A stretch of 63,337 bases of DNA, taken from positions 1 through 63,337 of the IMG/VR virus record IMGVR_UViG_3300017747_003155. The stretch is one strand, 5' to 3'. This stretch comes from a virus (taxonomy: Duplodnaviria > Caudoviricetes). The notes under the pieces were generated by a model. The model was not told the origin of the DNA. It did not search any database and saw only the letters and a program-made list of their open reading frames with translations. The position numbers and the translations under genes were made by a program. Below, one piece after another: positions 1,533-57,305 of the stretch. Position 1 is the stretch's first letter; each line of letters starts with the position of its first letter.

Positions 1533-1860
1533 AATCGACGAACTCGCAAAACTCGGGTTCCAGATGCCCCTGAACGCCCCCGGCGCGGAAGCCAAGGCGC
1601 GGATGCTTCTTGCGGCCGCGAAATCGCCCCGAATCGAGAAGGTCCCCGAAATCTCGGGTCGGGTTCAAAAGAACCCAACCCGAGCCGGGGTCGGGCAAAC
1701 CCTCCTGATTTGGGTGCTCGGGCTCGCCGTGCTGCCGTTCGGAATCGTCGCCTCGATCGTCGCGGCGATCATGATTTGCCTGTACGCCGTCGCTCTGATG
1801 ATCCAAGGAGTCTGGCGAATCCTGATGACCAAGTCGCGGTTGACCGGTCCCCCAGCCTGA
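1504..1860 (+). CDS. Membrane protein of unknown function (contains palindrome H1)
   Basis: Long hydrophobic C-terminal segment LLIWVLGLAVLPFGIVASIVAAIMICLYAVALMI. Confidence 0.6.
   Translation: MTQTPLTQAEIDELAKLGFQMPLNAPGAEAKARMLLAAAKSPRIEKVPEISGRVQKNPTRAGVGQTLLIWVLGLAVLPFGIVASIVAAIMICLYAVALMIQGVWRILMTKSRLTGPPA
1653..1684. repeat. 32-bp palindrome H1 (intragenic)
   Basis: CTCGGGTCGGGTTCAAAAGAACCCAACCCGAG. Confidence 0.9.
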
Positions 1861-1873
1861 ACAACCTCACCTC

Positions 1874-2395
1874 ATGAGCAAAGGAGAAGAAAATCTGATG
1901 GCGGGCATCCGTTCCCTCATCACCCCGGCGCTGGTCATCCCGAATGACTTCGTGGTGAAGGTTGGCCGAGACGCCAACTTCTACTCGGTCACGGTCGGCG
2001 TGAATCCGATCGACATGCCACGGTTGATCGGGAAGGCAGGCAACAACGTGCGGGCCATCAAGGCGATCCTCGCTCATGTCGGTCAACGCAACCGGTGCTT
2101 CATCCGGTTCTATGCCGCCGACCCCGACAACCCGACCGCCACCCGGCACGTCACCCCGCCGGCCCCGAAGTGGGAAAGCGGTCCGCTCATGAAGGCGGCC
2201 CGCACCGCCCTGACGATGGCCGGATACAGCGACCGACTCACCGGGCCGGACGCGATCGAGGAAAAGCAATTCATCACCGCCACGGCCGTCCTCGACCCGA
2301 CCTTCGGGGAAGCCCTCGCGCGGTGGCTCCATGTCATCGGCCGCAACTACGGGGCCAACGTCATCTTCGTCCATGAGCGACATCCGGCCGCATGA
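1874..2395 (+). CDS. KH-domain RNA-binding protein (KhpA-like) with C-terminal extension
   Basis: 'VNPIDMPRLIGKAGNNVRAIKAIL' is a KH GxxG loop in KhpA-like context. Confidence 0.75.
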   Translation: MSKGEENLMAGIRSLITPALVIPNDFVVKVGRDANFYSVTVGVNPIDMPRLIGKAGNNVRAIKAILAHVGQRNRCFIRFYAADPDNPTATRHVTPPAPKWESGPLMKAARTALTMAGYSDRLTGPDAIEEKQFITATAVLDPTFGEALARWLHVIGRNYGANVIFVHERHPAA

Positions 2396-2597
2396 CACCC
2401 TGCTGCGGTGGCTGGTACCTTCCAGCACCCGCGAGAACGAATTCCACCTCGTTGACCTCGGGGAAGGCATCTGCAGTTGCGAAGACCACCAATTCCGCGG
2501 CGTCCGCTGCAAGCACTTTGGCCCCGCCGAGGAAATGCTGCTCCGCTATACCATCGACACCCTGAAACGAAATGAGCAAAAGCGGCTTCACCCGTGA
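2373..2597 (+). CDS. SWIM zinc-finger protein
   Basis: 'HLVDL...CSCEDHQFRGVRCKH' (CxC...CxH). Confidence 0.75.
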   Translation: MSDIRPHDTLLRWLVPSSTRENEFHLVDLGEGICSCEDHQFRGVRCKHFGPAEEMLLRYTIDTLKRNEQKRLHP

Positions 2598-3111
2598 GAT
2601 GCTTCGGCAGAAAGGCTTCGTGATCGTCGACGGGGTGGCGACTCGCGTTGGCACGTCCGAGGTCCTTTCAACCGAAGATGGAATCACCACCACTCGCTAC
2701 AATGCCCGTCCTTGCCCTCAGGCGCCCGCCCCTGCCGTTTCCGCACCCGCCCCCGTGGGACCACAGCCAATCCGCATGAACCAGACGGAGGCGCGATTTT
2801 ACGAGATTCTGAAGGTTCGACACCTTGGCGACAAGATCCAACCGTTCTTCCGCGTCCGGATTTCCCGCTGGGACGATCCGACGGTCAGCTTTTACACGGC
2901 CGACTTCGCCGTCTGGACTCGCCTCACTTCGGGGTGGACAGTCCGACTCTATGAGGTAAAGGCGAAGGGCCGAAAGTACCATTCAGATGAACTGACGAGA
3001 CCGAAGATGGCCTGCATGGAGAACCCATGGATCGCCGACGTTGTTCTCGCCACCTACCAGAAAGGATCCTTCTCGGAAAAAACAATCGCATCCAACATCA
3101 ACCACCCATGA
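2572..3111 (+). CDS. PD-(D/E)XK-type endonuclease / possible resolvase
   Basis: 'MNQTEARF...FYTADF...LYEVK' pattern. Confidence 0.6.
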   Translation: MSKSGFTREMLRQKGFVIVDGVATRVGTSEVLSTEDGITTTRYNARPCPQAPAPAVSAPAPVGPQPIRMNQTEARFYEILKVRHLGDKIQPFFRVRISRWDDPTVSFYTADFAVWTRLTSGWTVRLYEVKAKGRKYHSDELTRPKMACMENPWIADVVLATYQKGSFSEKTIASNINHP

Positions 3112-4016
3112 CCCAACAGACATTCCAACCGCATCCCCTGAGCCTCGTCATGCCCGACATGACCCCGGCGGAATTCCAATCGCTCACCGATTCGATCCGG
3201 CAGGACGGCCAGCTTGAAGAAATCATCCTCCACGAAGGCAAGATCCTCGACGGCCGCCACCGCTATCAGGCCTGCATCAACCTCGGGCTCAACCCGGTCA
3301 TGCGCGAGTATGACACGATGATCGACGGGAACTCGCCCGCGAACTTTGTCCTATCGAAGAACCTGTGGCGCCGCCACCTGAGCATTTCCCAGCGCGCCGT
3401 GGTGGCGGCGGAAATCAAGCCGTTCTTCGAGGCGGAAGCCGCCGCCCGCCAAGCCGCCGCCCAGATCCAGCCCGGCAGCAACGTCATCCCGATGGTCGAA
3501 CCCGCCGCCGAAGCCGGCCGATCCGCCGAAAAGGCCGCCGAATTGCTCGGGGTGTCCGAATCATCCGTGAAGCGCGCCGCCGCGATCGTCGAGGCGGACC
3601 CGGCGCTCGCCGCCGATGTGAAGGCCGGCAAGGTCACGGTCACGAAGGCCGCGAAGAAGGTGGCATCGAAGAAAGCCGCGTCCGGCCTGCTCGAAGGCGA
3701 GTTCGCCAAGAAGGAGGCGCTGGAGAAAATCACGAAGGACCATGGCGAGGAATTCGGCAAAGCCCTGATGCGGGGTGACGTCCTGAAAAAAGCCAAGGAC
3801 TTCGACGACTTCATGACGCTCGATGTCGACGACCAGAACAAGGTGAAGGAATTGGTGCTCGCCCGCTGGACGGTCCGCAAGGCGCTCGACTTCCTGTCCG
3901 GCATCCCGACCGAGGAAACGAAGATCAAAGACCTCATGCTGCGGCTGAATGCCCAGACGAAGAAGAAACTCGCGTGGACAGTCGGGGCCTTTACGGTTAG
4001 CATCGCCCGAGAATAA
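3108..4016 (+). CDS. ParB/Spo0J-like protein with HTH
   Basis: 'HPLSLVMP...SIRQDGQLEEI...ILDGRHRYQAC...SKNLWRRHLS.SQRA' and HTH 'AEKAAELLGVSESSVKRA'. Confidence 0.85.
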   Translation: MTQQTFQPHPLSLVMPDMTPAEFQSLTDSIRQDGQLEEIILHEGKILDGRHRYQACINLGLNPVMREYDTMIDGNSPANFVLSKNLWRRHLSISQRAVVAAEIKPFFEAEAAARQAAAQIQPGSNVIPMVEPAAEAGRSAEKAAELLGVSESSVKRAAAIVEADPALAADVKAGKVTVTKAAKKVASKKAASGLLEGEFAKKEALEKITKDHGEEFGKALMRGDVLKKAKDFDDFMTLDVDDQNKVKELVLARWTVRKALDFLSGIPTEETKIKDLMLRLNAQTKKKLAWTVGAFTVSIARE

Positions 4017-4050
4017 CCGATCGAATCCCTCCCACTGACCCAACGAACCC

Positions 4051-6296: not shown

Positions 6297-7181
6297 ATGG
6301 CCGAGAATTCCAAAATCGAGTGGTGCGATCACACCTTCAACCCGTGGCGCGGTTGCACGAAGGTTTCGCCCGGCTGCGCGAACTGCTACGCCGAGACCCT
6401 GAGCCACCGCAACCCGGCCGTGCTGGGCGAGTGGGGGCCGGGCCGGCCGCGCGTGCGGGCCGCGATCGCGCAATGGCTCCTACCGCTCAAATGGGACCGG
6501 CAGGCAGGCGACTATCGCAACATGACAGGCTATCGCCCCCGTGTCTTCTGCGCGAGCCTCGCGGACTGGCTTGACGATGAAGTCCCTGTCGCGTGGCTGG
6601 CGGACTTATTGGCGCTGATCCTCCGCACCCCGAACCTTGACTGGCTGCTGCTGACGAAACGACCGCAACTCTGGCGCCGGCGCATCAACGCCGCGATGGT
6701 GGAACTGGACGAACGCGGCGAAAACATCGACTCATGCGCGTTGACGGAATGGATCGCCGGCATGCCGCCCGCAAACGTCTGGATCGGAACCAGCGTAGAG
6801 GACCAGACGCGCGCCGATGAGCGGATTCCCCACCTGCTCCGCATCCCGGCCAAGGTGCGGTTCCTGTCGTGCGAGCCGCTTCTCGGGCCGGTCGATTTAA
6901 CGGCTGTTCGCTGGGACGCCGGACTCGGTTACTTCGGCGACTGTATGGGACCCGATCACATCCCGCACGGCCGCCCTGACGACGCTCCGCGCATCCACTG
7001 GGTCATCGCTGGCGGTGAGTCCGGCCCGGACGCACGGCCCATGCACCCCGACTGGGTGCGATCCCTGCGTGACCAATGCGCGGAGGCCGGGGTGAGTTTC
7101 TTTATGAAGCAAATGGGAGGCGTCAGAAAGCCATTTCCGGCAATCCCCGAAGACTTGAACATCAAACAATGGCCAGCATGA
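6297..7181 (+). CDS. DUF5131 / phage Gp37Gp68 family (radical-SAM-like) protein
   Basis: 'SKIEWCDHTFNPWRGCTKVSPGCANCYAE', 'LLLTKRP', 'RFLSCEPLLG', 'WVIAGGESG', 'FFMKQ'. Confidence 0.95.
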   Translation: MAENSKIEWCDHTFNPWRGCTKVSPGCANCYAETLSHRNPAVLGEWGPGRPRVRAAIAQWLLPLKWDRQAGDYRNMTGYRPRVFCASLADWLDDEVPVAWLADLLALILRTPNLDWLLLTKRPQLWRRRINAAMVELDERGENIDSCALTEWIAGMPPANVWIGTSVEDQTRADERIPHLLRIPAKVRFLSCEPLLGPVDLTAVRWDAGLGYFGDCMGPDHIPHGRPDDAPRIHWVIAGGESGPDARPMHPDWVRSLRDQCAEAGVSFFMKQMGGVRKPFPAIPEDLNIKQWPA

Positions 7182-9184: not shown

Positions 9185-9668
9185 ACGCGCCGCCATGCTC
9201 CGACGATCGCTGGAGGAATTCGGCGACCTCGGTGGCATCGTCTACAACCGCCAGACGAAACAACTGATCGGCGGCCACCAGCGGGTCTCGATCCTGCGGG
9301 AAGACCCCACGGCCGAAGTCGTCATCACGGACGAACAACAGGAGACCGGCTACGTGGCCCTGCGGGGCGGTGTGGCGCGTTTCAGCTACCGGGTGGTGGA
9401 TTGGCCCCCAGAAAAGGAAAAGCTCGCCATGGTGGCAGCAAACAAGCAGGGAGGCGAATGGGATGTCTCGGCGCTCCAGTCGCTGCTGCTGGACGTCACC
9501 GACCACGACCTCGTTGGCTTCTCCGAGGACGAATGGAACAAACTCTTTCCCGCCCCTGAAATCGACCTCGACCCACCACCAGCCCCAGACCCCGATGACG
9601 AGAACCAAGGGATTGCCCACAAGTGCCCCCAGTGCGGACACGAATGGACCGGAAAGCCTCACGCCTGA
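9102..9668 (+). CDS. ParB-like N-terminal domain protein with C-terminal Zn ribbon
   Basis: 'NPKNPR...SLEEFG...LIGGHQR...ANKQGGEWD', 'CPQCGHEW'. Confidence 0.85.
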   Translation: MSKRKTPAPLPLSAIAPNPKNPRVLTPERAAMLRRSLEEFGDLGGIVYNRQTKQLIGGHQRVSILREDPTAEVVITDEQQETGYVALRGGVARFSYRVVDWPPEKEKLAMVAANKQGGEWDVSALQSLLLDVTDHDLVGFSEDEWNKLFPAPEIDLDPPPAPDPDDENQGIAHKCPQCGHEWTGKPHA

Positions 9669-9672
9669 ACCC

Positions 9673-10320
9673 ATGAAGATCGAACAAGTCCCACTGACCA
9701 GCATCCGGCCTCACCCGCGCAACTACCGCGAACACCCGGATGACCAACTCGACCACCTGAAGCAGTCGATCACCGAGCACGGGATCTACCGCAACATCGT
9801 GGTGTCGTCCGACAACTACATCCTCGCAGGCCACGGCGTCACGAAAGCCTGCACGGCACTCGGGATGACGGAAGTCCCCATCATCAGGATCGACGTACCC
9901 CACACGGACCCGAAAGCCCTCAAGCTGCTCGCGGCCGACAACGAACTGTCGAACCTCGCCGTCATCGACGACCGCGCCCTCACGGAACTCCTGAAGGAAA
10001 TCAAGGACACCGACCTCGACGGTCTGCTCGGCACCGGGTTCGATGAATCGATGCTCGCCAGTCTGGTGATGGTGACCCGCCCAGCATCCGAAATCGGAGG
10101 CATCGACGCCGCACGCGAATGGGTCGGCGCAGGAATGCCAGCCCACGACCCGGCAGAGAAGCGAGTCGTCCTGTCGGTATTCTTCACCAGTGAGGAAGAC
10201 CGCGCCAAATTCGTCGAGGAATTCAAGATCCCCCCGATCCTCACCAAGCGCCAATCCGTCTGGTCAACCTACTGGCCAGAACGAACCCGCGATGACCAGT
10301 CCAGCGTCCGCTTCGAATGA
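9673..10320 (+). CDS. ParB-like N-terminal domain protein
   Basis: 'PHPRNYREH...SITEHG...ILAGHG...LAADNELS'. Confidence 0.85.
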   Translation: MKIEQVPLTSIRPHPRNYREHPDDQLDHLKQSITEHGIYRNIVVSSDNYILAGHGVTKACTALGMTEVPIIRIDVPHTDPKALKLLAADNELSNLAVIDDRALTELLKEIKDTDLDGLLGTGFDESMLASLVMVTRPASEIGGIDAAREWVGAGMPAHDPAEKRVVLSVFFTSEEDRAKFVEEFKIPPILTKRQSVWSTYWPERTRDDQSSVRFE

Positions 10321-11213
10321 AACCACTCGCCCCACGCTACCCGGTCTATTGCATCTCCAAGGGCCGATCGGATTGCTGCCTCACCGCACAATTCCTCACC
10401 GCCGACAAAGTGGACTTCACCCTCGTGGTCGAGCCACAGGAACTCGAACTCTACGCGGCCCACTTCCCACGCGAAAGGATCGCGGTCCTGCCATTCAGCA
10501 ACCTCGGGCTCGGGTCCATCCCCGCCCGCAACTGGTGCTGGGAAGACGCCAAGGCCAAGGGCCACAAACGCCATTGGATCCTCGACGACAACATCCGGTG
10601 GGTCAGGCGCCTCTACCGCGGCAAACGCCTCCAGTGCAATTCCAAGTACGGCTTCACGGCCATCGAAGACTTCACCGACCGTTACGAGAACATCGGGATC
10701 GCAGGGATGAATTACACGATGTTCGTCCTGAACGACACCCCGACCCCGTTCTACCATAACTGCCACGTCTACTCCTGCCTGCTGATCGACAATGACCTCC
10801 CGTACCGCTGGCGCGGCCGATACAACGAGGACACCGACCTCTGCCTCCAAGTCCTGTCGGGCGGCTACTGCACCGTCCTCGTCAACACCTTCATGATCGA
10901 GAAAATGCGGACCATGACCATGAAGGGCGGGAACTCAGACCAACTCTACCAAGGCGACGGCCGCCTCAGGATGGCCCGGTCGCTCGAACGAGTCTGGCCA
11001 CACGTGGTTTCGGTCGACCGCCGCTTCCAACGCCCCCAGCATGTCGTCCGCGACTCATGGCGGAAATTCGACACCCCACTCAAGCTCAAACCCGGGATGC
11101 CGATCCACACCGAACCGGACGACCGCGGGATGAAGTTGGTGATGGTGAAGCCACCGAAGTCGAAATACATGCAGCAACTTCTGAACGAATTCCCGGCCGA
11201 CCCGCCTACGTGA
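10317..11213 (+). CDS. GT-A fold glycosyltransferase (GREB1/TET-associated type), putative DNA base modification
   Basis: 'YPVYCISKGR...VVEPQE...ARN...HWILDDNI...YSCLLI...WRGRYNEDTDLCLQ...TMKGGN'. Confidence 0.75.
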   Translation: MKPLAPRYPVYCISKGRSDCCLTAQFLTADKVDFTLVVEPQELELYAAHFPRERIAVLPFSNLGLGSIPARNWCWEDAKAKGHKRHWILDDNIRWVRRLYRGKRLQCNSKYGFTAIEDFTDRYENIGIAGMNYTMFVLNDTPTPFYHNCHVYSCLLIDNDLPYRWRGRYNEDTDLCLQVLSGGYCTVLVNTFMIEKMRTMTMKGGNSDQLYQGDGRLRMARSLERVWPHVVSVDRRFQRPQHVVRDSWRKFDTPLKLKPGMPIHTEPDDRGMKLVMVKPPKSKYMQQLLNEFPADPPT

Positions 11214-11265: not shown

Positions 11266-11874
11266 ATGAGCACCCCTCGCAACGCAACTCAGAAAGCCGA
11301 AGACGTCGCCTTCATCGCCAACCTGCGCCTTCGGCGTGTGACCTACAAGGACTGCCTCGAACTCATGAACGCGCGGCCGCACCGCGAGCCGATGTCGTGG
11401 GCATCGGTCCGGCGGATCGCCAAGGAGGCCGAGGACATGTGGAAGAAGGATGCGATCGCCGCCATCGAGACCGGGAAGGCGGAAATGCTGGCCGAGATCG
11501 AGTTGGTCCGGCAGGAGGCATGGGCGCTGTACGAGGAATCCAAAAAGTCGAAGACCGTGAAGCGTGCCGAGAAGGCCGGTGCCGGCGACGGCCGCGAAGG
11601 ATCGACAAAGCAGATCGTGACCGTCGAGGAACGGCTGGGAGACGTCAATGCGCTGAAGCTGGTGCTGGAAGCCCAAGAGCGGAAGGCGAAATTGCTCGGG
11701 CTGGACGCTGCCCAGAAGCAGGAACTGTCGGGCCCCGGAGGCACCCCGTTGGGCATCGGCACCCCGAAACTCACCGTCATCGTCAACACGCCCGTCGACG
11801 ATCGACCGTGGCATGAGAAGGTGGCGGCCGTCACTGGCCGGCGCATCGACCCCATCCCCGAACTCGAAGGCTGA
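11266..11874 (+). CDS. terS: Terminase small subunit
   Basis: Helical/HTH protein ending in the typical 'KLLGLDA.QKQELSGPGG.PL'; overlaps the TerL start. Confidence 0.75.
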   Translation: MSTPRNATQKAEDVAFIANLRLRRVTYKDCLELMNARPHREPMSWASVRRIAKEAEDMWKKDAIAAIETGKAEMLAEIELVRQEAWALYEESKKSKTVKRAEKAGAGDGREGSTKQIVTVEERLGDVNALKLVLEAQERKAKLLGLDAAQKQELSGPGGTPLGIGTPKLTVIVNTPVDDRPWHEKVAAVTGRRIDPIPELEG

Positions 11875-13277
11875 TGGCGGAACCGGGCGAAATCGTTCTC
11901 CAGTTGCACCCCAAGCAAAAGCTCGCGCTGGAATGCCCGGCGGACGAGGTTGTGTATGGGGGCGCGGCCGGCGGTGGCAAGTCCGGCCTGATGCGGGCGG
12001 CCAGCGTGGACTGGTGCATGAAGGTGCCCGGCCTGCAGGTCTATCTGTTCCGCCGCAACCGGATCGACCTCATCAAAAACCACTTCCAGTCGAGTTGGTC
12101 CTACCGGGACATCCTCGCCCCCCTGATCGCGACCGGCCACGCCCGGATCGTCCTGTCCAACAACCAGATTCGATTCTGGAACGGCAGCGTGATCCACCTG
12201 TGCTTCTGGCAGCGGGAGGAAGACCGGACCCGATACCAAGGTGCGGACATCCACGTTCTGCTGATCGACGAACTCACCCACTTCAAGGAGTCAGAATACC
12301 GGTTCCTACGCGGTCGTCTGCGCTTGGGTGGGTTGCCCATACCCCCCGGCCTCAAAACGCGCTTCCCGCGCGTCCTGTGCGGAACAAACCCCGGTGGCGT
12401 GGGGCATGTCTGGGTCAAAGAAGGCTGGGTCGACAAAGGCGAGTTCGTGGTCGAGCGCATGGACAAGACCGAAGGCGGGATGCTGCGCTGCTTCATCCCC
12501 GCCCGGACGGACGACAACCCGACGCTCGATGCCGACTATGAGGACAAGCTGTCCGGCCTCGGCGACCCCCTGTTGGTTCGAGCGATGCTCGACGGCGACT
12601 GGGAGATTGTGGCTGGATCGATGTTCGGGTCAACGTGGCGCCGCGAACTCCACACCTGCGACCCGTTCCCGATCCCGGCCGACTGGTCCATCTGGCGCGG
12701 GGCCGACGATGGCTTCGCAGATCCGCACGCCGTCGTCTGGATCACCAAGGACCCGAAGACCGGCACCCACTACATCATCGACGAACTCTACCGCTCCGGA
12801 ATGCTCCCCGAGGATGTCGCCCGCAAGACCAAGCAGATCGACGCTCAGATCACCCGGGAAAGCCCGGAAGGCCCGGTGCCGAACCATCAGGCTATCACGG
12901 GAATCCTCGACTCAGCGGCATTCGGGGACACCGGCACGGGCATCCCGCGCGGCGTGGCCTTCAACAAGCTGGGCCTGTACTATCGCCCCTGCATCAAGTG
13001 GCAGGGATGCCGGGCGGCCTACGCACAGCACTTCCATCGCCTCATGGCCCCGAACCCCAAGACCCCGATCGCGGGCCAGCCGGGGAAATTCTGGCCGTCC
13101 ATTCGGGTGTTCCGAAACTGCAAGGAATTCATCAAGCGGGTCCCGAACCTCCCGCGTGACGAACGCGACCCCGAGGTCATCGACGATGACGCCGAAGACC
13201 ACATTTTTGACGCCGCGGCCTACGGTCTGATGTGGAAGACAAACGAGTTTCGGCGCGCCTCGAAGACGGGCCTCTGA
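11874..13277 (+). CDS. terL: Terminase large subunit
   Basis: 'YGGAAGGGKS', 'LLIDELTHF', 'TNPGGVGH.WVK', 'DNPTL', nuclease 'GADDG', 'DHIFDA..Y'. Confidence 0.95.
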   Translation: MAEPGEIVLQLHPKQKLALECPADEVVYGGAAGGGKSGLMRAASVDWCMKVPGLQVYLFRRNRIDLIKNHFQSSWSYRDILAPLIATGHARIVLSNNQIRFWNGSVIHLCFWQREEDRTRYQGADIHVLLIDELTHFKESEYRFLRGRLRLGGLPIPPGLKTRFPRVLCGTNPGGVGHVWVKEGWVDKGEFVVERMDKTEGGMLRCFIPARTDDNPTLDADYEDKLSGLGDPLLVRAMLDGDWEIVAGSMFGSTWRRELHTCDPFPIPADWSIWRGADDGFADPHAVVWITKDPKTGTHYIIDELYRSGMLPEDVARKTKQIDAQITRESPEGPVPNHQAITGILDSAAFGDTGTGIPRGVAFNKLGLYYRPCIKWQGCRAAYAQHFHRLMAPNPKTPIAGQPGKFWPSIRVFRNCKEFIKRVPNLPRDERDPEVIDDDAEDHIFDAAAYGLMWKTNEFRRASKTGL

Positions 13278-13341
13278 AATCAATGACCGAGAATTATTTT
13301 TTCGCGTCCGAGTTTCGCCAAATCGAGAACGCCACTCGATT

Positions 13342-13373
13342 CTCGGGTCGGGGTCAAAAGAACCCGACCCGAA
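13342..13373. repeat. 32-bp palindrome H2
   Basis: CTCGGGTCGGGGTCAAAAGAACCCGACCCGAA. Confidence 0.9.
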
Positions 13374-13390
13374 GCCTGCCCGACAAAAGA

Positions 13391-13450
13391 TTGCAGAAAA
13401 TGCGCAACTATTGTTTACAGCGTTGCGCAAATCGGGTATAGTTCACCTAC
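13391..13450 (+). promoter_or_regulatory. Operator-bearing sigma70-like promoter P1
   Basis: TTTACA(13414)-N17-TATAGT(13437); TTGCGCAA in the spacer, TGCGCAA upstream. Confidence 0.85.
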
Positions 13451-13465
13451 CAACCCAACGAATCC

Positions 13466-13759
13466 ATGAAGACCACGATCCTGACCTTTACCCGCGCCCA
13501 ATTCGACTCCCTGCGCGACATGATCCTCACCAACGGCAAACCCGCCTACGACGAAGCCAACCAAGGCGATTGCGAGAATGGCCCGGAGGCGCCCGACTAC
13601 CTCGGCCACCAGTACAACGAAATGACCGCGTGGACCGACACCGACGACATCATCGAAATCTGCGCCACGGTCGCCGGCAAACCCGAGATCCTGTTCATCG
13701 TCCATCCTGATTCCGACCCAGCGATCGTCGCCGAAATCCAGAACGGCCCACAATTCTAA
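13466..13759 (+). CDS. Hypothetical acidic protein (first gene after P1)
   Basis: Start motif CCAACGAATCCATG; typical codon usage. Confidence 0.7.
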   Translation: MKTTILTFTRAQFDSLRDMILTNGKPAYDEANQGDCENGPEAPDYLGHQYNEMTAWTDTDDIIEICATVAGKPEILFIVHPDSDPAIVAEIQNGPQF

Positions 13760-13785: not shown

Positions 13786-14250
13786 ATGAAAACCACCGCC
13801 ATCGCGATCCTCAGCATCATCGTGACCGCTCAGTCAGTCTGGATCGCTCACCTCGAAATCAGCATTCAGGGAACGTCCCCGACGATTTTCGTGCGAAGCA
13901 ATCCTGCACCCGCTGCACCCGCTGCACCCGCTGCACCCGTCGCAATACCCGCCGCCCTGCTGCGACCCAGCACCGAGGAAGAACAACAGCTACTCCCCCG
14001 GCTCGAAGAAGGCCAAGGCGACGGCGAGAAGGACTTCGACTTCCCGCTCCCGACCGAACCCCCGTTCGGGTCCGCGGACAGCAAACTGATCCCCCAGCCG
14101 GCCGACCCGGTGCCGATCGCATCCGCTGCACCCGCGAAACCGAAAGCCAAAAAGGCCCCGGTCGCGAAGAAGCCCGCCGCCAAGCCCGCGCGCATCCTCG
14201 CGAAGACGACCGCGAAGCCGAAACCGAAGGCCAAGCCCAAGGCAAAATAA
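13786..14250 (+). CDS. Membrane-anchored or exported Pro/Ala-rich protein with Lys/Ala/Pro-rich tail
   Basis: Hydrophobic N-terminus, PAAPAAPAAP, C-terminal KPKAKKAPVAKKPAAK. Confidence 0.7.
   Translation: MKTTAIAILSIIVTAQSVWIAHLEISIQGTSPTIFVRSNPAPAAPAAPAAPVAIPAALLRPSTEEEQQLLPRLEEGQGDGEKDFDFPLPTEPPFGSADSKLIPQPADPVPIASAAPAKPKAKKAPVAKKPAAKPARILAKTTAKPKPKAKPKAK
13904..13939 (+). repeat. Tandem repeat (CTGCACCCG) x4, coding PAA units
   Basis: Four exact 9-mers. Confidence 0.9.
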
Positions 14251-14310
14251 TTGATCAAAATGCGCAACTTGTGTTTACAGGTTGCGCATTTTGTGGTAGT
14301 ATGCACCTAC
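14251..14310 (+). promoter_or_regulatory. Operator-bearing promoter P2
   Basis: TTTACA(14274)-N17-TAGTAT(14297) with extended -10 TG; TTGATCAA, TGCGCAA and TTGCGCA boxes. Confidence 0.85.
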
Positions 14311-15216: not shown

Positions 15217-15458
15217 ACGCCCGCACCGAAACCACCGTCCAACACATCGGCGTCCAGAATGGCTTCGATGGCGAGAAATTCGACCTCTACAACGTGGTGG
15301 CGCCCGGCTGGCGGGCGAACGGCACCACGATCATGCTGCGGCAGGGAGCGCCACCTGAAGTCGTGCTCGAAGCCGCGGTCCAGAAGGTCGTGATGGTCGA
15401 GCAACAATCTGCACAGATTTGCGCAAAAATGATGGACAGATTGCGCAAAGTCGGATAG
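15213..15458 (+). CDS. Hypothetical protein
   Basis: ATGA-coupled ORF. Confidence 0.55.
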   Translation: MNARTETTVQHIGVQNGFDGEKFDLYNVVAPGWRANGTTIMLRQGAPPEVVLEAAVQKVVMVEQQSAQICAKMMDRLRKVG

Positions 15459-15995: not shown

Positions 15996-16050
15996 CCGAT
16001 CGAACCACCCGGGCGGGTCCGACCCCCGCCCTACAACCCATCCTCACGCC

Positions 16051-16315: not shown

Positions 16316-16366
16316 TTGATCAAAAGTTGTTTACAGGTTGCGCAAAATGCGATAGGATCATCCTAC
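16316..16366 (+). promoter_or_regulatory. Operator-bearing promoter P4
   Basis: TTTACA(16330)-N17-TAGGAT(16353); TTGATCAA and TTGCGCAA. Confidence 0.85.
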
Positions 16367-16773: not shown

Positions 16774-16828
16774 CCATCCACCGGGGCGGGGTTCGACCCT
16801 CCGCCCCACATCCCCCACACCCACACCC

Positions 16829-18325: not shown

Positions 18326-18718
18326 ATGTCCGAAGACACCATACCCTACGAAACCGTCCAGCCGCCCGAACGCCCGAAGATCGTCCGCAAGCAGATCCCG
18401 CCCCATGTCAAGGCGGCGCTGTCGCTGGAGGTCTTCCCCGTTCGAGGCGACCTGCAAGAACGCCTGACCGAAGACCACATCGCGGTCATCGACGAACTCG
18501 CGAACCGGCACGGCATTCCCTACATGTCGGTCCGCAACTTCCTGCTCAAGCTGGGCTACACGATCCCGTCGAAACACTCGGAGGAATACCGTCAGGCGAT
18601 GCGGCAGAAGCGGGAGCAGGAATCCGGCGTGGTCGAAGACCCACTGGAGCAGATCCAGCGGGACATCGCATGGATCAAGGCGGCGATCGCGAAGCTCATC
18701 CCGCCGGAACAAAATTGA
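18326..18718 (+). CDS. Hypothetical protein, possible HTH
   Basis: 'IDELANRHGIPYMSVRNFL'. Confidence 0.6.
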   Translation: MSEDTIPYETVQPPERPKIVRKQIPPHVKAALSLEVFPVRGDLQERLTEDHIAVIDELANRHGIPYMSVRNFLLKLGYTIPSKHSEEYRQAMRQKREQESGVVEDPLEQIQRDIAWIKAAIAKLIPPEQN

Positions 18719-18765
18719 TCAAAGTTGTTTACAGCTTTGCGCAAATCGGATAGGATCGCTCTACC
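18715..18765 (+). promoter_or_regulatory. Operator-bearing promoter P5
   Basis: TTTACA(18728)-N17-TAGGAT(18751); TTGATCAA and TTGCGCAA. Confidence 0.85.
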
Positions 18766-19040: not shown

Positions 19041-19065
19041 CCGAACCCTTCACTCCACCGCACCC

Positions 19066-19293
19066 ATGAACGCACTCATCCTCATCGGTCACCGCCCCGG
19101 CGGCCCAGCCCAAGCCTACGGGTTCGGGGGATGGGTGGCGCTCGAATCCGTTCCCACCAACATGCACGGCTTGATCCTCACGCCGCTGGACGGGATCGAG
19201 GCTTACGCGGCGACGGTTCGCCGACGTTACCCGACCCACAAGCTCAGCGCGATGACCACCGCCGACTTCTTGAAATCCCGCACCAACCCATGA
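19066..19293 (+). CDS. Hypothetical protein
   Basis: Start motif CCACCGCACCCATG. Confidence 0.65.
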   Translation: MNALILIGHRPGGPAQAYGFGGWVALESVPTNMHGLILTPLDGIEAYAATVRRRYPTHKLSAMTTADFLKSRTNP

Positions 19294-22422: not shown

Positions 22423-22911
22423 ATGATCCAACCGACTGTTGTTGTCTCGGCCAAGAAGGACCGAGAAGGCCTGTACATCGGCCGGGCATTCGCCGGCTTT
22501 GAAGCCTCCCCGTTCCTGAACCCGTTCAGCGTCGGGGAAGACACCCCGCAGAATCGCATCGAAGCGGTCTGGAAGTTCACGAAGTGGTTCCTGAACCAAC
22601 CGCAGCGGTTCGAGCTCGACCAGATCCGCAACGCCAAGCAGGTGGTCTGCTGGTGCGCGCCGAGCCTGTGCCACGGTCACGTTCTGGCGTGGCTGGTTGC
22701 CCACCAGAAGTTCCGCGGTCCGTGCGTGATGTGCGGGGAACCGATGGTCTCGAAGATGAATGGGTTTGACCACGGCCCCCATGTGGCATCGTACTTGGTC
22801 TATGAGCAGGGCGAGTGTCGCAATCCCCCGTGCCGACACTACCGGTTCACCCACACCGCCAACATCACCAAAGAGACCATCCCGGCATGGGCCGCCGAAC
22901 ATTATGACTGA
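22423..22911 (+). CDS. DUF4326-family protein with Zn-ribbon tail
   Basis: 'LYIGR...SPFLNPF...CWCAP.LCHGHVL'. Confidence 0.85.
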   Translation: MIQPTVVVSAKKDREGLYIGRAFAGFEASPFLNPFSVGEDTPQNRIEAVWKFTKWFLNQPQRFELDQIRNAKQVVCWCAPSLCHGHVLAWLVAHQKFRGPCVMCGEPMVSKMNGFDHGPHVASYLVYEQGECRNPPCRHYRFTHTANITKETIPAWAAEHYD

Positions 22912-23197: not shown

Positions 23198-23269
23198 CGG
23201 CGGGTCTTCGTGGTGGACGATGCCGCCAGTGGTAGCCACTCTTGGGAGGGAGGCGGCACCGCGAGCGAG

Positions 23270-23310
23270 ACCCCGGAACGGCTTTGAAACCCGTTCCGGG
23301 GTTTTTGTTT
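23270..23310 (+). terminator. Intrinsic terminator closing the 10-kb accessory block
   Basis: ACCCCGGAACGG-loop-CCGTTCCGGGGT followed by TTTTGTTT. Confidence 0.8.
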
Positions 23311-23341
23311 GTCCGGGCGACCCATCGTGCTATCGGTTGCG

Positions 23342-24964
23342 ATGCCCGTCTCTAATTGCCACCCCACCCACCAATCAGCAGTCGACCGCTGGCGCCAGAT
23401 CCGCGACTGCATCGACGGATCGCAGGCGGTGAAGGAAGGGGGAACCCTGTATCTCCCTTCGCTCGGGTCCCACACGGATGTCCCGGGTGCCTATGAGGCC
23501 TACAAGAAGCGCGCCCTGTACTTCAATGCGACGAACCGCACCCACGATGCGCTGCTCGGGTTCCTGTTCCGCAAACCGCCGGTCGTCCAGCTTGGCCCGA
23601 AGGACTCGAAGGCCACCCTGATCCCCGAGAACGAAGTCGCGAACATCGACCTGTCGGGCAATTCCATCACCGACTACTCCCGGCTGGTAGGCGACGATGT
23701 GGCGAGCGTCGGGCGCGCCGGCACACTGATCGACTGGATTCTGTCGGACGGCGTGGGCCGCCCTCGGTTCACGTTCTATTCGGCCGAATCGGTCATCAAC
23801 TGGCGCGGGCAGATGGTGAACGGGAAGATGCTCCTGACGATGCTGGTGCTGAAGGAAGTGGTTCGGGTGGAAAGCTCCGCGGACGAATTCGATGAACCCG
23901 AGGATGTCCAGTACCGGGTGCTGCGGCTCACGGACTCGGGTGTCGAGGTCGAGGTCCACACCGGGATCAAGGAAGATCCCAATTCGGATGTCCCGAAGCG
24001 CGGTGGGCAGGGGACGGGCGTGCCGTCCTTCGCGATCGAAAAACTCCCCCCGATGACGCGTCGCGGGCGACCCCTCATGGAAATCCCGTTCGTGTTCCAC
24101 AACGCCGACCACATCGGGATGGACATCGGGATTTCCCCCCTGTATGACCTCAGCGAAGTCAACATCAGCCACTACCAGACCAGCGCCGATGTCGAGAACG
24201 CCAGCCACGTTCTGGGAGTCCCGACCCCGTACGCCTTCGGGTTGACCAGCGGTGGCGAACCCGTGAAGGCGGATCTACTGTACCTCGGCGGGCCGGCGTG
24301 GGTCAGCGACAACGCCGATGCCCAAGTCGGGTTCCTCGAATTCACCGGCCAAGGCCTCGGGGCCCTGAAGGATCGACTGGCCGAAAAGCTGCAAGCGATG
24401 GCGGCGATCGGCGCGCGGATGATCGAACCAAAGCAGGGGGATGCCGAGGCATTCGAGACGGTGGCGCTCCGGGCGACCAGCGAGACCTCCGCACTGGCCA
24501 GCATCGCCTCGTTCATCTCCCGCTCGATGACCGATGCCCTGAAGTGGTATGTCTGGTGGACATCGACCGAGGACTCCTACGAGGACATCAAGGACGTCCG
24601 GTTCGAGATCAACCGCGACTTCGTGGCGACCCGCCTGCAGCCGGCCGAACTGACCGCCCTGCTCGCCGCATACCAGTCCGGCGCCATCTCGTTCGAGACG
24701 ATGTTCTTCAACTTCCAGCGTGCCGACCTGTACCCGCCGGACCACGACCTCGAAACCGAACGCGCCGCGATCGACGAACAACTCCAGATGCCGATCCCGG
24801 GCGCCCGCGGCGAAGCCTTCAATGCCGAGCGCGAGGACGCCGCAGCAGAGGCCGACGCCGAGGAAGATCCCGAGGAAGACCCGACATTCGGCAAACCGGC
24901 GGCGAAGAAGGCGGCGAAGAAAGCGGCCAAGAAGGCGGCTGGAAAACGCCCGCCGGCCGAGTAA
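23342..24964 (+). CDS. Portal protein (DUF4055-like)
   Basis: 'YEAYKKRALYFNAT', 'AESVINWR', 'PLYDL...NISHYQ.SAD', 'GARM', 'GAIS.ET'; C-terminal AAKK repeats. Confidence 0.9.
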   Translation: MPVSNCHPTHQSAVDRWRQIRDCIDGSQAVKEGGTLYLPSLGSHTDVPGAYEAYKKRALYFNATNRTHDALLGFLFRKPPVVQLGPKDSKATLIPENEVANIDLSGNSITDYSRLVGDDVASVGRAGTLIDWILSDGVGRPRFTFYSAESVINWRGQMVNGKMLLTMLVLKEVVRVESSADEFDEPEDVQYRVLRLTDSGVEVEVHTGIKEDPNSDVPKRGGQGTGVPSFAIEKLPPMTRRGRPLMEIPFVFHNADHIGMDIGISPLYDLSEVNISHYQTSADVENASHVLGVPTPYAFGLTSGGEPVKADLLYLGGPAWVSDNADAQVGFLEFTGQGLGALKDRLAEKLQAMAAIGARMIEPKQGDAEAFETVALRATSETSALASIASFISRSMTDALKWYVWWTSTEDSYEDIKDVRFEINRDFVATRLQPAELTALLAAYQSGAISFETMFFNFQRADLYPPDHDLETERAAIDEQLQMPIPGARGEAFNAEREDAAAEADAEEDPEEDPTFGKPAAKKAAKKAAKKAAGKRPPAE

Positions 24965-24973
24965 CGGTTGGGG

Positions 24974-26125
24974 ATGCCCGACCAGACCGACGAGATCGTC
25001 ACCCATACCCTGAGCATCCTGCGTGTGGCCGCCGGCCTGCGGCGGGAAGCCGTGGCGGTCCTGCAAGACTTGCAGGCCGCACTGATCGCGAAGATCGAGC
25101 GCATCGCTCCAGACACCCTCAAGGGCCGTCGAATGCGAGCCCTGTTGGAACAAACGGACGAGTCGATCGCAGCCGCCTACCGCGATGTGGAGGTCAACCA
25201 AGACGCCGGCCTGCGGGCGATCGCCGGGCTGGAAGGGAAGTTCGCCATCAAGACCCTGAATGGCAAAATCGGCGTGCCGCTCATCAGCGTGGCGATCCCC
25301 GAGAAGGTGGTCGAGGCGGTGGTCGACGGCGACACGATCTTCGGGCACTCGGCCAAGTCGTGGTGGGACCAGCAGGCAGAGGATCTTCGCTTCAAGTTTC
25401 GCGGTGCCATGCAGCAAGGAATCCTGATGGGTGAAACCGTCGACCAACTCGCCCGCCGCGTGCGCGGCACGAAGGTCGGGGAATTCAAGGACGGCATCAT
25501 CCCGTCCGGCGATGCGACAGGCCTGATCCCGAAGAAAAAGCGCGAGGCCGAGGCACTGGTGCGATCGAGCGCCATCGCCATCTCGAACGAAGCCCGCCTG
25601 CGGTCCTACGAGGAATTGTCGGATGTCGTCGGGGCCATCCAGTGGGTGTCGACGCTGGACTCCCGCACGACCGATATCTGCAAGGCGCTGTCCGGCCTCA
25701 AGTGGTCGCTGCCCGACTACAAGCCGATCGGCCACACCAAGGTCTTCCCCGGCCCGACCGCGCATTGGAATTGCCGCTCGACCCAAGTGGCGGTCACGAA
25801 ATCATGGGACGAACTGAGTGGGAAAAAGCTCCCGTCCCTCGGCGACAAGACCGTGGAGGCCCGGATGAAGCAACTGCTCCGGAAAGAGGGATGGTCGGAG
25901 GAAAAGCTGGAACAGGTGAAGGTGAATGCCCGTGCGTCGATGGACGGACCGATCAGTCGGGATGTGACGATGGACAAATGGATGGAAGGGAAGTCGGACT
26001 CGTTCCTGAACGAAGCCCTCGGGCCCGGCCGGGCGGCGCTTTTCAAGGAGGGAAAGATCGCGCTGGCGGACCTGACCGACCAGTCGAATCGACCTCTGAC
26101 GCTCGCCCAACTGAAGCGACTGTGA
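24974..26125 (+). CDS. Minor head / head morphogenesis protein (SPP1 gp7 / Mu F-like)
   Basis: 'QWVSTLDSRTT.IC...GPTAHWNCRST', 'LGPGRA.LF..G', 'LTLAQL'. Confidence 0.9.
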   Translation: MPDQTDEIVTHTLSILRVAAGLRREAVAVLQDLQAALIAKIERIAPDTLKGRRMRALLEQTDESIAAAYRDVEVNQDAGLRAIAGLEGKFAIKTLNGKIGVPLISVAIPEKVVEAVVDGDTIFGHSAKSWWDQQAEDLRFKFRGAMQQGILMGETVDQLARRVRGTKVGEFKDGIIPSGDATGLIPKKKREAEALVRSSAIAISNEARLRSYEELSDVVGAIQWVSTLDSRTTDICKALSGLKWSLPDYKPIGHTKVFPGPTAHWNCRSTQVAVTKSWDELSGKKLPSLGDKTVEARMKQLLRKEGWSEEKLEQVKVNARASMDGPISRDVTMDKWMEGKSDSFLNEALGPGRAALFKEGKIALADLTDQSNRPLTLAQLKRL

Positions 26126-26165: not shown

Positions 26166-26182
26166 CGACGGGTGACGAAAGA

Positions 26183-26243: not shown

Positions 26244-26261
26244 AACCAATCCACTGCATCC

Positions 26262-34995: not shown

Positions 34996-35022
34996 CGTTT
35001 CGGGGGTTTCACTACGCATCGG

Positions 35023-35059
35023 ACGGCGGCACCTATTCTGGGTGCCGCCGTTTTCGTTT
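35023..35059 (+). terminator. Intrinsic terminator after the tail tube gene
   Basis: ACGGCGGCACC-N7-GGTGCCGCCGT followed by TTTCGTTT. Confidence 0.8.
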
Positions 35060-44124: not shown

Positions 44125-44609
44125 CGGCGCTCGCGTTGGCGGAAATGTATCGGGGCACGGTGCACCGAAATCGGATGCGGCTGGCCGGCGAAGGCGTCGA
44201 CTGCATCAACTTCGTGATGGCGATCCTCGAAGGGTCGGGCGTTCTGCCGAGAACCCCGCTGCCGTTCTACGACGAACGCCTCGGGAGCTTCCGCGCCCGC
44301 AACGTGATGGAAGACCTGTTCCTGCGCTTCTTCCACGCCGAGGCGCATGAACCCGAATGGAACAACGGGTGCCCGGAATTCGGCGATGTGGTCATCTGCA
44401 AGTGCGGTCGCCAGTCGAACCATGTCGGGATCATCCTCGACGGGTGGTTCTGGCACGTTCCCTCCAAGGGGTTCTGTTCGCCCGAGCCATGGCCGTTCTG
44501 GCAATTCCGGGCCCAGAGGCTTGTGCGCTTCACCCAGATCGGTCGCCGCGAAGATCCGGCTGGTCTCCGGTGGCGTGACATCAAAGGATTGGCAGACCGG
44601 CCCGCCTGA
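44121..44609 (+). CDS. NlpC/P60-family tail assembly peptidase
   Basis: 'GT.H......GEGVDC..FV', 'GDVV', 'HVGI'; GTG start overlaps the upstream stop. Confidence 0.85.
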   Translation: MTALALAEMYRGTVHRNRMRLAGEGVDCINFVMAILEGSGVLPRTPLPFYDERLGSFRARNVMEDLFLRFFHAEAHEPEWNNGCPEFGDVVICKCGRQSNHVGIILDGWFWHVPSKGFCSPEPWPFWQFRAQRLVRFTQIGRREDPAGLRWRDIKGLADRPA

Positions 44610-44646
44610 GGGATGGACAGGCCTTAATTACAGTATAAGGGTTTTG

Positions 44647-45117
44647 ATGCAAATCAGCCCCGAAACCAAATCCTTCACCCTCTACGGGGTGACATGGCGC
44701 CTCCAGAAAACCGGATACTTCACTGGAGGCAAAGCCAAAAGGTTCCACCGCGTCCACTACGAGCAAACTGTCGGACCGATCCCTCACGGGCACGACATCC
44801 ACCACCGGGACGGCGACAAGCTGAACAACGACCCGAGCAACCTTCAGCCCGTCACCCCACAGGAACACCGGGCGCTTCACCACGACCACAACATGCGGGC
44901 AATCTCGAAAGCCATCGAAGTCGTGCGGGCGACATGCAACCTGCCGGAAAAAAAGGAGGCGTTCCGCGGTCGAATCCTGACCATGTGGAAAAACCGGGCG
45001 GAAAGGGAAATTCGGTGCATTGTGTGTGGAACGGTGAAGACCACCATCTGCATGAAACCTGTGATGTATTGCAGCACCCGCTGCAAACAACGCGCTAAAC
45101 ACTTGAAAACCAAATGA
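44647..45117 (+). CDS. Free-standing HNH homing endonuclease
   Basis: 'HRVHYE...GPIP.GHDIHHRDGDKLNN.PSNL...EH...H' plus a C-terminal Zn ribbon (CIVC...YCS..C); AT-richer leader. Confidence 0.9.
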   Translation: MQISPETKSFTLYGVTWRLQKTGYFTGGKAKRFHRVHYEQTVGPIPHGHDIHHRDGDKLNNDPSNLQPVTPQEHRALHHDHNMRAISKAIEVVRATCNLPEKKEAFRGRILTMWKNRAEREIRCIVCGTVKTTICMKPVMYCSTRCKQRAKHLKTK

Positions 45118-56143: not shown

Positions 56144-56155
56144 CCCGTCACCGCC

Positions 56156-56773
56156 ATGCAGATCACCCCTTCGCACTACCTCGACACCGCCATCAAGGAT
56201 GTTCTGCCGGGCGGCGAGCCGATGAATGTCCGGCGGTTCCTCGTCATCCACTTCACGGGCGGCTGGACGGCCCAGTCCAGCATCGACTTCTGGCGGACGA
56301 AAGCCGCGAAGGGAGCGAACGCGCATCTCATCATCGACCGCGACGGCACGACCTTCCAGTGTCGACCGTTCAACCGCACGGCCGGCCACGCCGGGGTGAG
56401 TCGCTGGACGGACCCGAAGACCGGGATCGTCTACCGCGGCCTGAATTCGTGCAGCATCGGGATCGAGCTTGCCAACTGCGGCGACCTCGCCCGTTCGACC
56501 TACCCGCAGACGATGCCGATTGGCTTCGCGGGCGAACCGATCCCGCGCTACCGCGGACGACACAAGAACGGCGGGCAGACCAAAGACTGGGAGACCTACG
56601 ACAAGCGGCAACTCGACGCCGTGCTGGCGATCGGTCGACTGCTCTGCACCCGATACAAGCTCGACGACGTTGTCGGGCATGACGACATCGCCCCCGAGCG
56701 CAAGAACGATCCCGGCCCGGCATTCCCGATGACCGAGATCCGGGGGGCACTCGGATATCCGCCATTGCCATGA
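56156..56773 (+). CDS. Endolysin, N-acetylmuramoyl-L-alanine amidase (Amidase_2)
   Basis: 'LVIHFT', 'AHLIIDRDG', 'HAG.S.W', 'NSCSIGIELAN', 'GHDDIAP.RK.DPGP.FP'. Confidence 0.95.
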   Translation: MQITPSHYLDTAIKDVLPGGEPMNVRRFLVIHFTGGWTAQSSIDFWRTKAAKGANAHLIIDRDGTTFQCRPFNRTAGHAGVSRWTDPKTGIVYRGLNSCSIGIELANCGDLARSTYPQTMPIGFAGEPIPRYRGRHKNGGQTKDWETYDKRQLDAVLAIGRLLCTRYKLDDVVGHDDIAPERKNDPGPAFPMTEIRGALGYPPLP

Positions 56774-56868
56774 CACCATTTTCGCTATTCTTTCCATCGT
56801 TGGCGCTCGCCGTGTGGCGGGCAAACCGATCGCTGGACCCAAGACAAAGACCCATACAACTGAACATC

Positions 56869-57204
56869 ATGCCCGGAAATTATTCTGCCACTCAGGCCAT
56901 CACCGTCATCGGTGCGCTGCTCGCCCTCGCGGGTGAACTGCGTGTCCAACTGAAGGAAGCCAAGGCCGCACTGAAACCCGCACAGGACGACTTGCGCGCC
57001 CTTGCGGAAGAAGACGCCGCGATCGAAGCCAAGCTGGCCGAGGTCCAAGCGACCCTCGACGGCTGGAGCGCCGAAGATGCCGCCCCGACCGACCCGGAGA
57101 CTCCACCGACCGATCCGGTGCCTCCGACCGACCCCGCGCCACCGGAGGACCCCGTCCCCCCAGCGGGCGATGGCGGCGACCTCGCGCCGCCCGCGGGGCA
57201 GTAG
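56869..57204 (+). CDS. Coiled-coil protein with PTDP repeats (lysis-associated, possible spanin)
   Basis: Short hydrophobic N-terminus, heptads, (P-T/E-D-P-x-P)n tail. Confidence 0.55.
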   Translation: MPGNYSATQAITVIGALLALAGELRVQLKEAKAALKPAQDDLRALAEEDAAIEAKLAEVQATLDGWSAEDAAPTDPETPPTDPVPPTDPAPPEDPVPPAGDGGDLAPPAGQ

Positions 57205-57234
57205 TTTTCATCCTGTCGCGAGGATGATGTGTGG

Positions 57235-57273
57235 GTGAAGGCCGATCCTTTTGGGGGTCGGCCTTCACTGTTT
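57235..57273 (+). terminator. Intrinsic terminator ending the late region
   Basis: GTGAAGGCCGATCC-loop-GGGTCGGCCTTCAC followed by TGTTT. Confidence 0.75.
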
Positions 57274-57305
57274 CTCGGGTCGGGGTCAAAAGAACCCAAC
57301 CCGAG
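57274..57305. repeat. 32-bp palindrome H4
   Basis: CTCGGGTCGGGGTCAAAAGAACCCAACCCGAG. Confidence 0.9.

Follow-up and report, generated by a model that had tools for sequence, protein, structure and literature searches.

Four copies of a 32-bp palindrome, here called H (H1 to H4 in map order), are dispersed over the genome of an uncultured freshwater phage (IMG/VR record IMGVR_UViG_3300017747_003155), and three of them stand where a late gene gives way to a block of small genes behind predicted early promoters. The question that this locus raises is what such a palindrome does there: does it act as a hairpin in the transcript, as a duplex site for a protein, or as a repeat with no dedicated function? 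The window analysed is the whole record (63,337 bases, with an estimated completeness of 95%), which belongs to an SPP1-like siphovirus with a G+C content of 62% and with practically every gene on the + strand. Our answer, which we favour tentatively and hold to be quite possible but short of probable, is that H is a lineage-specific, mobile stem-loop module, resembling the promoter-stem-loop (PeSL) cassettes of T4-type phages, which would attenuate read-through and mark the borders of gene cassettes.

Copies, fold and flank of the palindrome

The H pattern was found at exactly four sites in the window (Table 1), each on both strands and with zero to one mismatch, where 0.00 were expected from 100 shuffles, and there was no fifth copy in the rest of the record. 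An earlier note on this DNA had described four near-identical palindromes, one of them with a flipped core, and both statements were borne out, the core of H3 (TTCTTTTGAC) being the exact reverse complement of the core of H2 and H4 (GTCAAAAGAA). Single arms with up to one mismatch occur 13 times in the window, eight of them within the four palindromes; the other five compare with 5.1 expected, i.e., free half-sites outside H are not enriched. The division into 11-bp arms and a 10-bp core that had been proposed is right as to the inverted arms, but the pairing extends into the core (T13-A20 and C14-G19, in H1 also T12-A21), and the element is more aptly regarded as a stem of 14 bp closed by a 4-nt AAAA or TTTT loop, a geometry that one expects of a hairpin more than of a duplex binding site. 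Three copies carry a G.A mismatch (U.C on the sense strand of H3), while the stem of H1 is complete. Folded as RNA together with their flanks, all four copies gave −29 to −54 kcal/mol (z −2.1 to −5.9), and the bare 32-mers folded as DNA gave z scores of −4.2 to −7.4. The substitutions in the arms are all G-to-A changes in the 3' arm of the A-loop strand, which yields C.A on that strand and G.U on its complement; the bias rests on two or three events and is not significant. The tails of three copies (CCGGGGTC, GCCTGCCC and CGACGGGT) contain no T run and a short one follows H4 only, and the claim that none has a U-tract thus holds for three of the four copies and fails for H4.

A 20-nt flank (ATCGAGA...AAAT) is common to H1 and H2, where it lies on the left, and to H4, where it lies inverted on the right. 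The flank identities are 16/20, 14/20 and 13/20; 24 anchored comparisons were made, and the chance per pair is ~1e-5, ~1e-4 and ~6e-4. The same anchored comparison found no such flank at H3. Since three copies share the flank, the unit is an asymmetric one of ~52 nt that is found in either orientation. At H4 the palindrome, arm variant included, is turned round relative to the flank; this turn and the flipped core of H3 therefore imply at least two inversions among the four copies. Loops between short inverted repeats flip recurrently in chloroplast DNA with no recombinase needed, as outlined in PMC6005162, and by this analogy the core flip of H3 and the turn of H4 would be ordinary hairpin-mediated minute inversions rather than site-specific recombination. 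The earlier wording, "inverted in place", is thus correct for the core, while the need for a recombinase is not supported, since hairpin loops invert unaided elsewhere.

Placement at the borders of variable gene blocks

Three copies lie 8-70 nt past the stop of a late gene and before three of seven promoter cassettes. The TerL stop and H2 are 64 nt apart, and only 8 nt separate the Mu-F-like head protein gene's stop from H3, whereas behind the lysis genes (ORF, open reading frame, ending at 57204) a T-tract terminator is passed before H4 is reached. CGATT stands directly left of both H2 and H3, and the −35 box starts 41 nt past the palindrome end at both (13373 to 13414 and 26165 to 26206). 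The distance from H4 to its −35 box is 58 nt, 17 nt more, because the inverted flank sits between H4 and the promoter. The colinear contexts of H2 and H3, the position of three copies at borders between late genes and promoter-driven accessory blocks, and a separate real terminator ahead of H4 had all been pointed out in the earlier note, and all were found again here.

The seven cassettes, which are conserved copies of one unit, have their −35 boxes at 13414, 14274, 15433, 16330, 18728, 26206 and 57363. Each consists of a −35 (TTTACA) between TGCGCA boxes, a −10 resembling TAGGAT, and a leader rich in C that runs to ...CCATG with no Shine-Dalgarno site. As judged from these elements, they are sigma70-like early promoters that would drive small, mostly orphan genes in three blocks: one of 10.0 kb between TerL and the portal gene, one of 2.1 kb between the Mu-F-like gene and the scaffold gene, and one after lysis that leads to the replication genes. 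Gene content was assigned from Pfam (a scan that covered 81 ORFs) and PHROGs, and most block ORFs had no match in either. H2, H3 and H4 form the left borders of the blocks, ahead of the first promoter of each (P1, P6 and P7); none of the internal promoters P2-P5 has an H, and no promoter follows H1.

The TGCGCA box, of which there are two around the −35 in all seven promoters, seems to be a conserved regulatory word of the whole phage group. The ParB-like helix-turn-helix (HTH) protein described below is a candidate for binding this box, not H, because it is the sole HTH protein seen to be conserved in this phage and its three relatives. The starts that have no Shine-Dalgarno site share a C-rich word, CCACCGCAYCC-ATG, whose version in the relative G001 is ACCACGACCACGACC-ATG; this suggests either that the host works without Shine-Dalgarno pairing or that there is a phage-specific translation signal.

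H1 lies inside an open frame of 118 amino acids (1504-1860) that has a start context typical of the phage and a C-terminal membrane helix. The G+C signal at third codon positions (GC3) favours coding on both sides of H1, and no homologue of the ORF was found among proteins of near length. The earlier description of H1 as lying inside a coding sequence is supported by the open frame with its GC3 signal; on the other side, the ORF is an orphan, and a shorter membrane peptide of 48 amino acids from GTG 1714 may be made instead. Two small ORFs around H1 are absent from G001. Directly after the H1 ORF, a KH-domain (KhpA/B-like) RNA-binding protein is encoded at 1874-2395 and is kept in G001. Since C-rich strands are bound by the KH domains of other proteins, the C-rich leaders are a possible target of this one.

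Three relatives, G001 (62,992 bases; the closest of them), G002 and G003, were reached through an alignment of full-length ParB-like homologues. All are IMG/VR records syntenic with the window, and their TerL proteins are 51-54% identical to that of the window. In G001, 32 of 73 window proteins were matched at 28-76% identity with their order kept, but of the 23 genes that lie in the three blocks or open them, only 2 were among these. With blocks at the same three places and 2/23 genes in common, these are variable regions at fixed positions. The H motif is absent from all three relatives. In G001, the TerL stop is followed by a promoter with the TGCGCACGCGTGCGCA box and no H, and the lysis genes by a stop, a T-tract terminator and the same kind of promoter, i.e., the architecture of the window minus H; the TGCGCACGCGTGCGCA box occurs at four early promoters of this phage.

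G001 has a private palindrome of its own, G+C-rich with an AAATTT centre, in seven exact-core copies and one degenerate copy (−14 to −29 kcal/mol, no T tract). These palindromes stand between genes of the early and late regions, each beside a conserved short motif. This motif, CCRACASTGTMGRAC, is on the sense strand in every case, stands on either side of the palindrome, and may hold a −10-like TAGRAC; the palindromes themselves are of two arm types, with two copies being hybrid. Since the hairpin family of G001 differs from H, the hairpin sequence turns over between lineages while the architecture stays. G002 and G003 contain a perfect 16-bp palindrome in 15-17 copies, with arms that resemble the TGCGCA box and a weak fold (−3 to −8 kcal/mol), which looks like a protein site. 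In G002, 9 of the 15 copies lie 0-15 nt past a stop, two are beside a canonical terminator, and three precede a TTGAC-type promoter.

Searches of IMG/VR returned no match to the exact motif and none to the inner stem with its loop. A loose pattern (10-bp arms, N8-12) was run on metagenome and genome contigs, and the H loop was present in 0 of the 242 matches listed (238 loci), which are generic G+C stems; these scans covered at least 118 and at least 120 stretches, and H may still have a metagenomic or host source. The promoter/operator word gave 12 loci in IMG/VR, all in low-GC contigs and attributable to chance. The TerL relatives that direct searches brought up (41-44% identity) had no long palindromes, and the Mu-F-like and ParB-like proteins used as single queries gave no locus. 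Among GenBank phages, the best matches were 42% for TerL and 47% for the major capsid protein, and a DNA-level search for relatives gave no match. The phage is present in only one DNA sequencing run, which may be that of the source sample, and no RNA run is listed. The contigs assembled from the DNA run are interrupted at H2 and H3, with no joints between copies; contigs cannot show rare forms, and their depths (40-59) have no meaning for recombination at H.

Table 1. Positions of the palindromes, their flanks, promoters, terminators and genes (window coordinates, unless another record is named)
Feature	Position	Strand	Remarks
H1 flank	1633-1652	+	
H1	1653-1684		complete 14-bp stem, one C.A mismatch on + strand, AAAA loop
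H2 flank	13322-13341	+	makes its own 7-bp hairpin
H2	13342-13373		
H3	26134-26165		core inverted
H4	57274-57305		followed by ATTTTG
H4 flank	57306-57325	-	on the opposite side of the palindrome
P1 cassette	13382-13465	+	TGCGCA boxes around −35 TTTACA, −10 TATAGT; leader to ATG 13466
P6 cassette	26174-26261	+	
P7 cassette	57331-57414	+	−35 57363-57368, −10 57386-57391, ATG 57415
TGCGCA boxes	13401-13428, 14261-14288, 15420-15447, 16317-16344, 18715-18743, 26193-26220, 57350-57377		
C-rich start word, examples	13450-13468, 19050-19068, 26246-26264, 26860-26878, 57399-57417, 61265-61293, 62869-62897		
Terminator	23267-23305		T-rich tail; before portal
Terminator	35021-35053		T-rich tail; after tail tube gene
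Terminator	57234-57269	+	hairpin and T-rich tail; before H4
Unique G+C hairpins	16011-16031, 16783-16807, 61237-61265		no T tract; just past stops
DnaC-like loader			the sole IS (insertion sequence)-related match, IstB, is this same gene
ParB-like HTH protein	3027/3108-4016		PHROG ParB-like, E 6.8e-15; DGRHR motif and HTH in sequence
SNF2-type helicase and HNH endonuclease			Pfam/PHROGs
TerL	11874-13277		Pfam Terminase_6N
Portal	23309-24964		
Mu-F-like head protein	24968-26125		
Scaffold	28251-29006		
SPP1-like capsid protein	29311-30405		tail genes also encoded
Amidase	56156-56773		followed by ORF 56770-57204 (lysis end)
Rad50/SbcC-like ATPase and UvrD-like helicase	59116-62868		Pfam/PHROGs
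G001 private palindrome	8800, 18319, 22729, 35816, 48733, 50937, 57380		positions in the reverse-complemented record (L342-L345)

Possible roles of the palindrome

The reading that we favour tentatively is that of a PeSL-like stem-loop module, because H matches the PeSLs of T4-type phages in its placement and fold, in its link to orphan-gene blocks and in the turnover of hairpins between lineages. These are described as repeated cassettes in which an early promoter is combined with a stem-loop, with orphan genes, in the hyperplastic regions of those phages; the stem-loop terminates in vivo, and PeSL copies recombine (PMC2839356; PMC4122927). The analogy, which the earlier note had raised, fits the present case: a promoter is joined to the stem-loop at H2, H3 and H4, the 14-bp stem is stable in 4/4 copies, and orphan genes fill the variable regions between core genes (2/23 block genes in G001). 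The ~52-nt unit (the 20-nt flank and the 32-bp palindrome) would have been copied to four places in the phage, where each copy would fold as a 14-bp G+C-rich hairpin in the transcript and transiently in single-stranded DNA. The hairpin would attenuate or stop read-through into the early block, or protect the upstream 3' end, or both, and the early promoter would thereby be insulated. Identical copies would also provide short homology where blocks could be gained, lost or swapped. Both the role in termination or insulation and the role in recombination are putative.

Several observations weigh against a PeSL-like module. A T tract is missing after three of the four H copies, although the clear terminators of the phage have one, and H4 would be redundant as a terminator, standing directly behind one with a T tract. 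No promoter follows H1, and the open frame that encloses this copy shows coding signal to its left and right. In the arms, the three substitutions each leave C.A in the sense-strand RNA, with G.U in the antisense strand. Identity among the palindromes is 29-31/32, and no compensatory double change is seen, while the 8-20 nt beside them have diverged (the 8 nt adjoining H2 and H3 are unrelated to each other); that H is kept far better than its neighbours suggests sequence recognition, concerted evolution or recent insertion, not structure alone. No joint between H copies was seen in the contigs of one run, and the descriptions of PeSLs (PMC2839356; PMC4122927) concern T4-like myoviruses only.

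Sequence recognition would follow directly if H were a duplex site for a phage protein, either the ParB-like protein (3108-4016) or another regulator, which insulates or silences early promoters as KorB does at OB, as the N15 IR1-4 sites do or as stoperators do. We consider this unlikely. All four copies, the one in an ORF among them, preserve the sequence and not just the pairing, with the immediate flanks diverged, and taken as a duplex H3 is the same site turned round. The HTH-bearing ParB gene named in the earlier note is real (PHROG matches, 223 homologues; Pfam yields just a sub-threshold HTH_23 match for ORF 3027/3108-4016) and lies 1.4 kb from H1. The phage N15 uses four inverted-repeat (IR) centromere sites, as outlined in PMC7205306, stoperators are dispersed repressor sites, as outlined in PMC9283540, and the weakly folding 16-bp palindromes of G002 and G003 resemble a protein site as well. 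However, the ParB-like gene has orthologues in all three relatives (30-41% identity) and none of these has H, so that the predicted co-occurrence of motif and gene fails in 3/3; there is also no ParA in the 81 ORFs scanned. The geometry points the same way, since H has 32 bp, 14-bp arms and a 4-nt centre, while parS and OB sites have 13-16 bp. The chance level of free half-sites and the 17-nt difference in palindrome-promoter distance between H2/H3 and H4 likewise argue against such a site, and a lineage-private site requires a lineage-private binder, none of which was identified. The earlier proposal that H is the site of this ParB is therefore not supported. In a wider form, H would be the DNA target of a protein or nuclease: a loading or roadblock site for a ParB/KorB-like clamp or a private regulator that walls off early blocks in the late operon, or a cruciform or hairpin cut by a Rad50/SbcC-like complex to start recombination at cassette borders, with each lineage having its private pair of palindrome and binder. 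This too we regard as unlikely.

It is quite unlikely that H is a selfish palindromic repeat, a miniature relative of REP elements or of MITEs (miniature inverted-repeat transposable elements), spread by template switching or ectopic repair without any dedicated function, whose proximity to promoters reflects insertion tolerance. Such a repeat would account for the asymmetric 52-nt unit in both orientations, for the copy in an orphan ORF that is absent from G001, for the promoters without a palindrome after TerL and lysis in G001 (as if 52 nt had been inserted here), for the lack of the motif in IMG/VR outside this record, and for the different private family of G001. Against it, the H borders show no target-site duplication and no terminal repeats beyond the palindrome, the 81 ORFs include no transposase and no RAYT-like gene, and there are four copies only; the identical 41-nt distance to the −35 at H2 and H3 suggests copying together with the promoter, not independent insertion.

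We regard it as very unlikely that H is an RNA processing or stability signal, i.e., a site for a double-strand-specific RNase or a protector of 3' ends that would segment polycistronic transcripts into parts of differing lifetimes, comparable to the RNase III sites of T7. The hairpins are strong, fold on their own, lack a T tract and stand in identical form at unit borders and, as H1, inside a long early operon, and other hairpins without a T tract occur between co-directional genes here and in G001. Yet the 14-bp stem is below the length of typical RNase III substrates, the loop and the mismatch in the sense RNA differ by orientation (AAAA versus UUUU), and cutting at H1 would destroy its own ORF.

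A recombinase site, also proposed earlier, finds no support, with no integrase or resolvase in the 81 ORFs and a spacer of 4 nt (10 by the count of the earlier note) instead of 6-8, and a phage genome with several lox-like sites would have essential DNA deleted or inverted. Five further candidates were rejected: a promoter within H (no acceptable hexamers), an upstream activator site (the promoter distance varies by 17 nt, and four promoters have no H), a nut/put-like antitermination site (which would sit upstream of promoters rather than downstream), pac or cos (the copies are dispersed), and an orientation set by replichore or lagging strand (no consistent pattern; monotonic GC skew).

Other features of the genome and comparison with known systems

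The gene for an O-like replication initiator is broken over both record ends (62895-63335 and 47-322), and the map is therefore circular or permuted, cut inside this gene. Window positions 1-78 and 63260-63337 are 77% alike with many C runs, and iteron-like GTGACTCTCTGTCA repeats lie just within the right end (63145-63226); the record probably represents a genome of circular or permuted form that was cut in the origin region, with poor end sequence. The Pfam scan of the 81 ORFs gave no integrase, resolvase, transposase or ParA/CbiA-type match, and Rfam and tRNA scans gave no match at all. PADLOC and NCBIfam contributed just generic Rad50/SMC-like and UvrD-like names. The Rad50/SbcC/LmuB-like coiled-coil ATPase is followed by the UvrD-like helicase (strong GajB-model matches), and the pair is kept in 3/3 relatives; the ORF upstream (58166-59077) was not recognisable as an Mre11/SbcD-like partner. 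A TET-associated glycosyltransferase (Pfam E 9.5e-52) adjoins a second, ParB_N-like protein, and DUF5131 and DUF4326 proteins are also encoded (9370-11213, 6297-7181 and 22423-22911), which together suggest DNA hypermodification; no TET/JBP enzyme was seen among the ORFs scanned. Within the tail module, an HNH_3 endonuclease gene (44347-45117) is unmatched in G001 and has a weak homologue (30%) elsewhere in G002, directly after TerL; it looks like a free-standing mobile endonuclease. The first accessory block has, within its second gene, the 9-base unit CTGCACCCG four times in tandem (13904-13939).

If the PeSL-like reading is true, promoter/stem-loop cassettes for modular shuffling are not peculiar to T4-like myoviruses, and such cassettes also organise variable blocks inside the head-gene cluster of an unrelated siphovirus group. 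The finding alone would be a modest extension of a known idea. Four related phages, each with different private palindromes and a common TGCGCA-box promoter grammar, make up a small natural series in which one can ask whether the hairpins act by structure alone or via co-evolving binders.

Among known systems, small dispersed palindromes in both orientations are also seen in the intergenic REP and Correia-type repeats, but no RAYT gene is present here, and the target-site duplications, terminal repeats or transposase of REP elements and MITEs were not found. The lox, FRT and dif sites likewise have inverted arms around an asymmetric centre, with a spacer of 6-8 nt, and H differs in its spacer and in the lack of a recombinase gene. 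The stoperators of Cluster A mycobacteriophages are, like H, many copies of a short intergenic site, and they block transcription; as outlined in PMC9283540, they are 13-bp asymmetric sites of fixed orientation with a known repressor, whereas H is a palindrome in both orientations with no known binder. The KorB OB sites of RK2 and the IR1-4 sites of N15 (PMC7205306), both dispersed sites of the ParB/parS type, are similar in being a few palindromes scattered over a genome that encodes an HTH-bearing ParB-like protein, some of them upstream of promoters. Sites of this type differ in that H is twice as long and hairpin-like; a cognate HTH protein is encoded here, ParA is absent from the ORFs scanned, relatives have the gene without the motif, and binding to H is putative.

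Intrinsic terminators have a G+C stem and tetraloop just past a gene end in common with three of the copies, and H4 has a short T run; H differs from them in having no T tract in 3/4 copies, in its identical copies and in the copy within an ORF, and the canonical terminators of this phage look different. The minute hairpin inversions of non-coding chloroplast DNA (Kelchner and Wendel 1996, cited in PMC6005162) are alike in that a loop is reverse-complemented between colinear flanks; the inversions here are between paralogous copies in one phage genome, while those in plastids, as the citing paper presents them, are between species. The PeSLs of T4-type phages, as presented by Arbiol et al. 2010 (PMC2839356) and Comeau et al. 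2014 (PMC4122927), also combine a sigma70-like early promoter with a stable G+C stem-loop and end at the start codon of an orphan gene, and in both systems the cassettes are concentrated in variable regions amid conserved late genes, with copies alike enough to recombine. The present cassettes differ from the PeSLs of those accounts in belonging to an SPP1-like siphovirus without Shine-Dalgarno sites, in which 3/7 promoters have the hairpin and one hairpin stands alone in an ORF. In this phage, H forms a separable unit of 52 nt, placed upstream of the promoter; it is conserved far better than the adjoining spacer and has also been inverted, and its terminator and recombination roles are putative.

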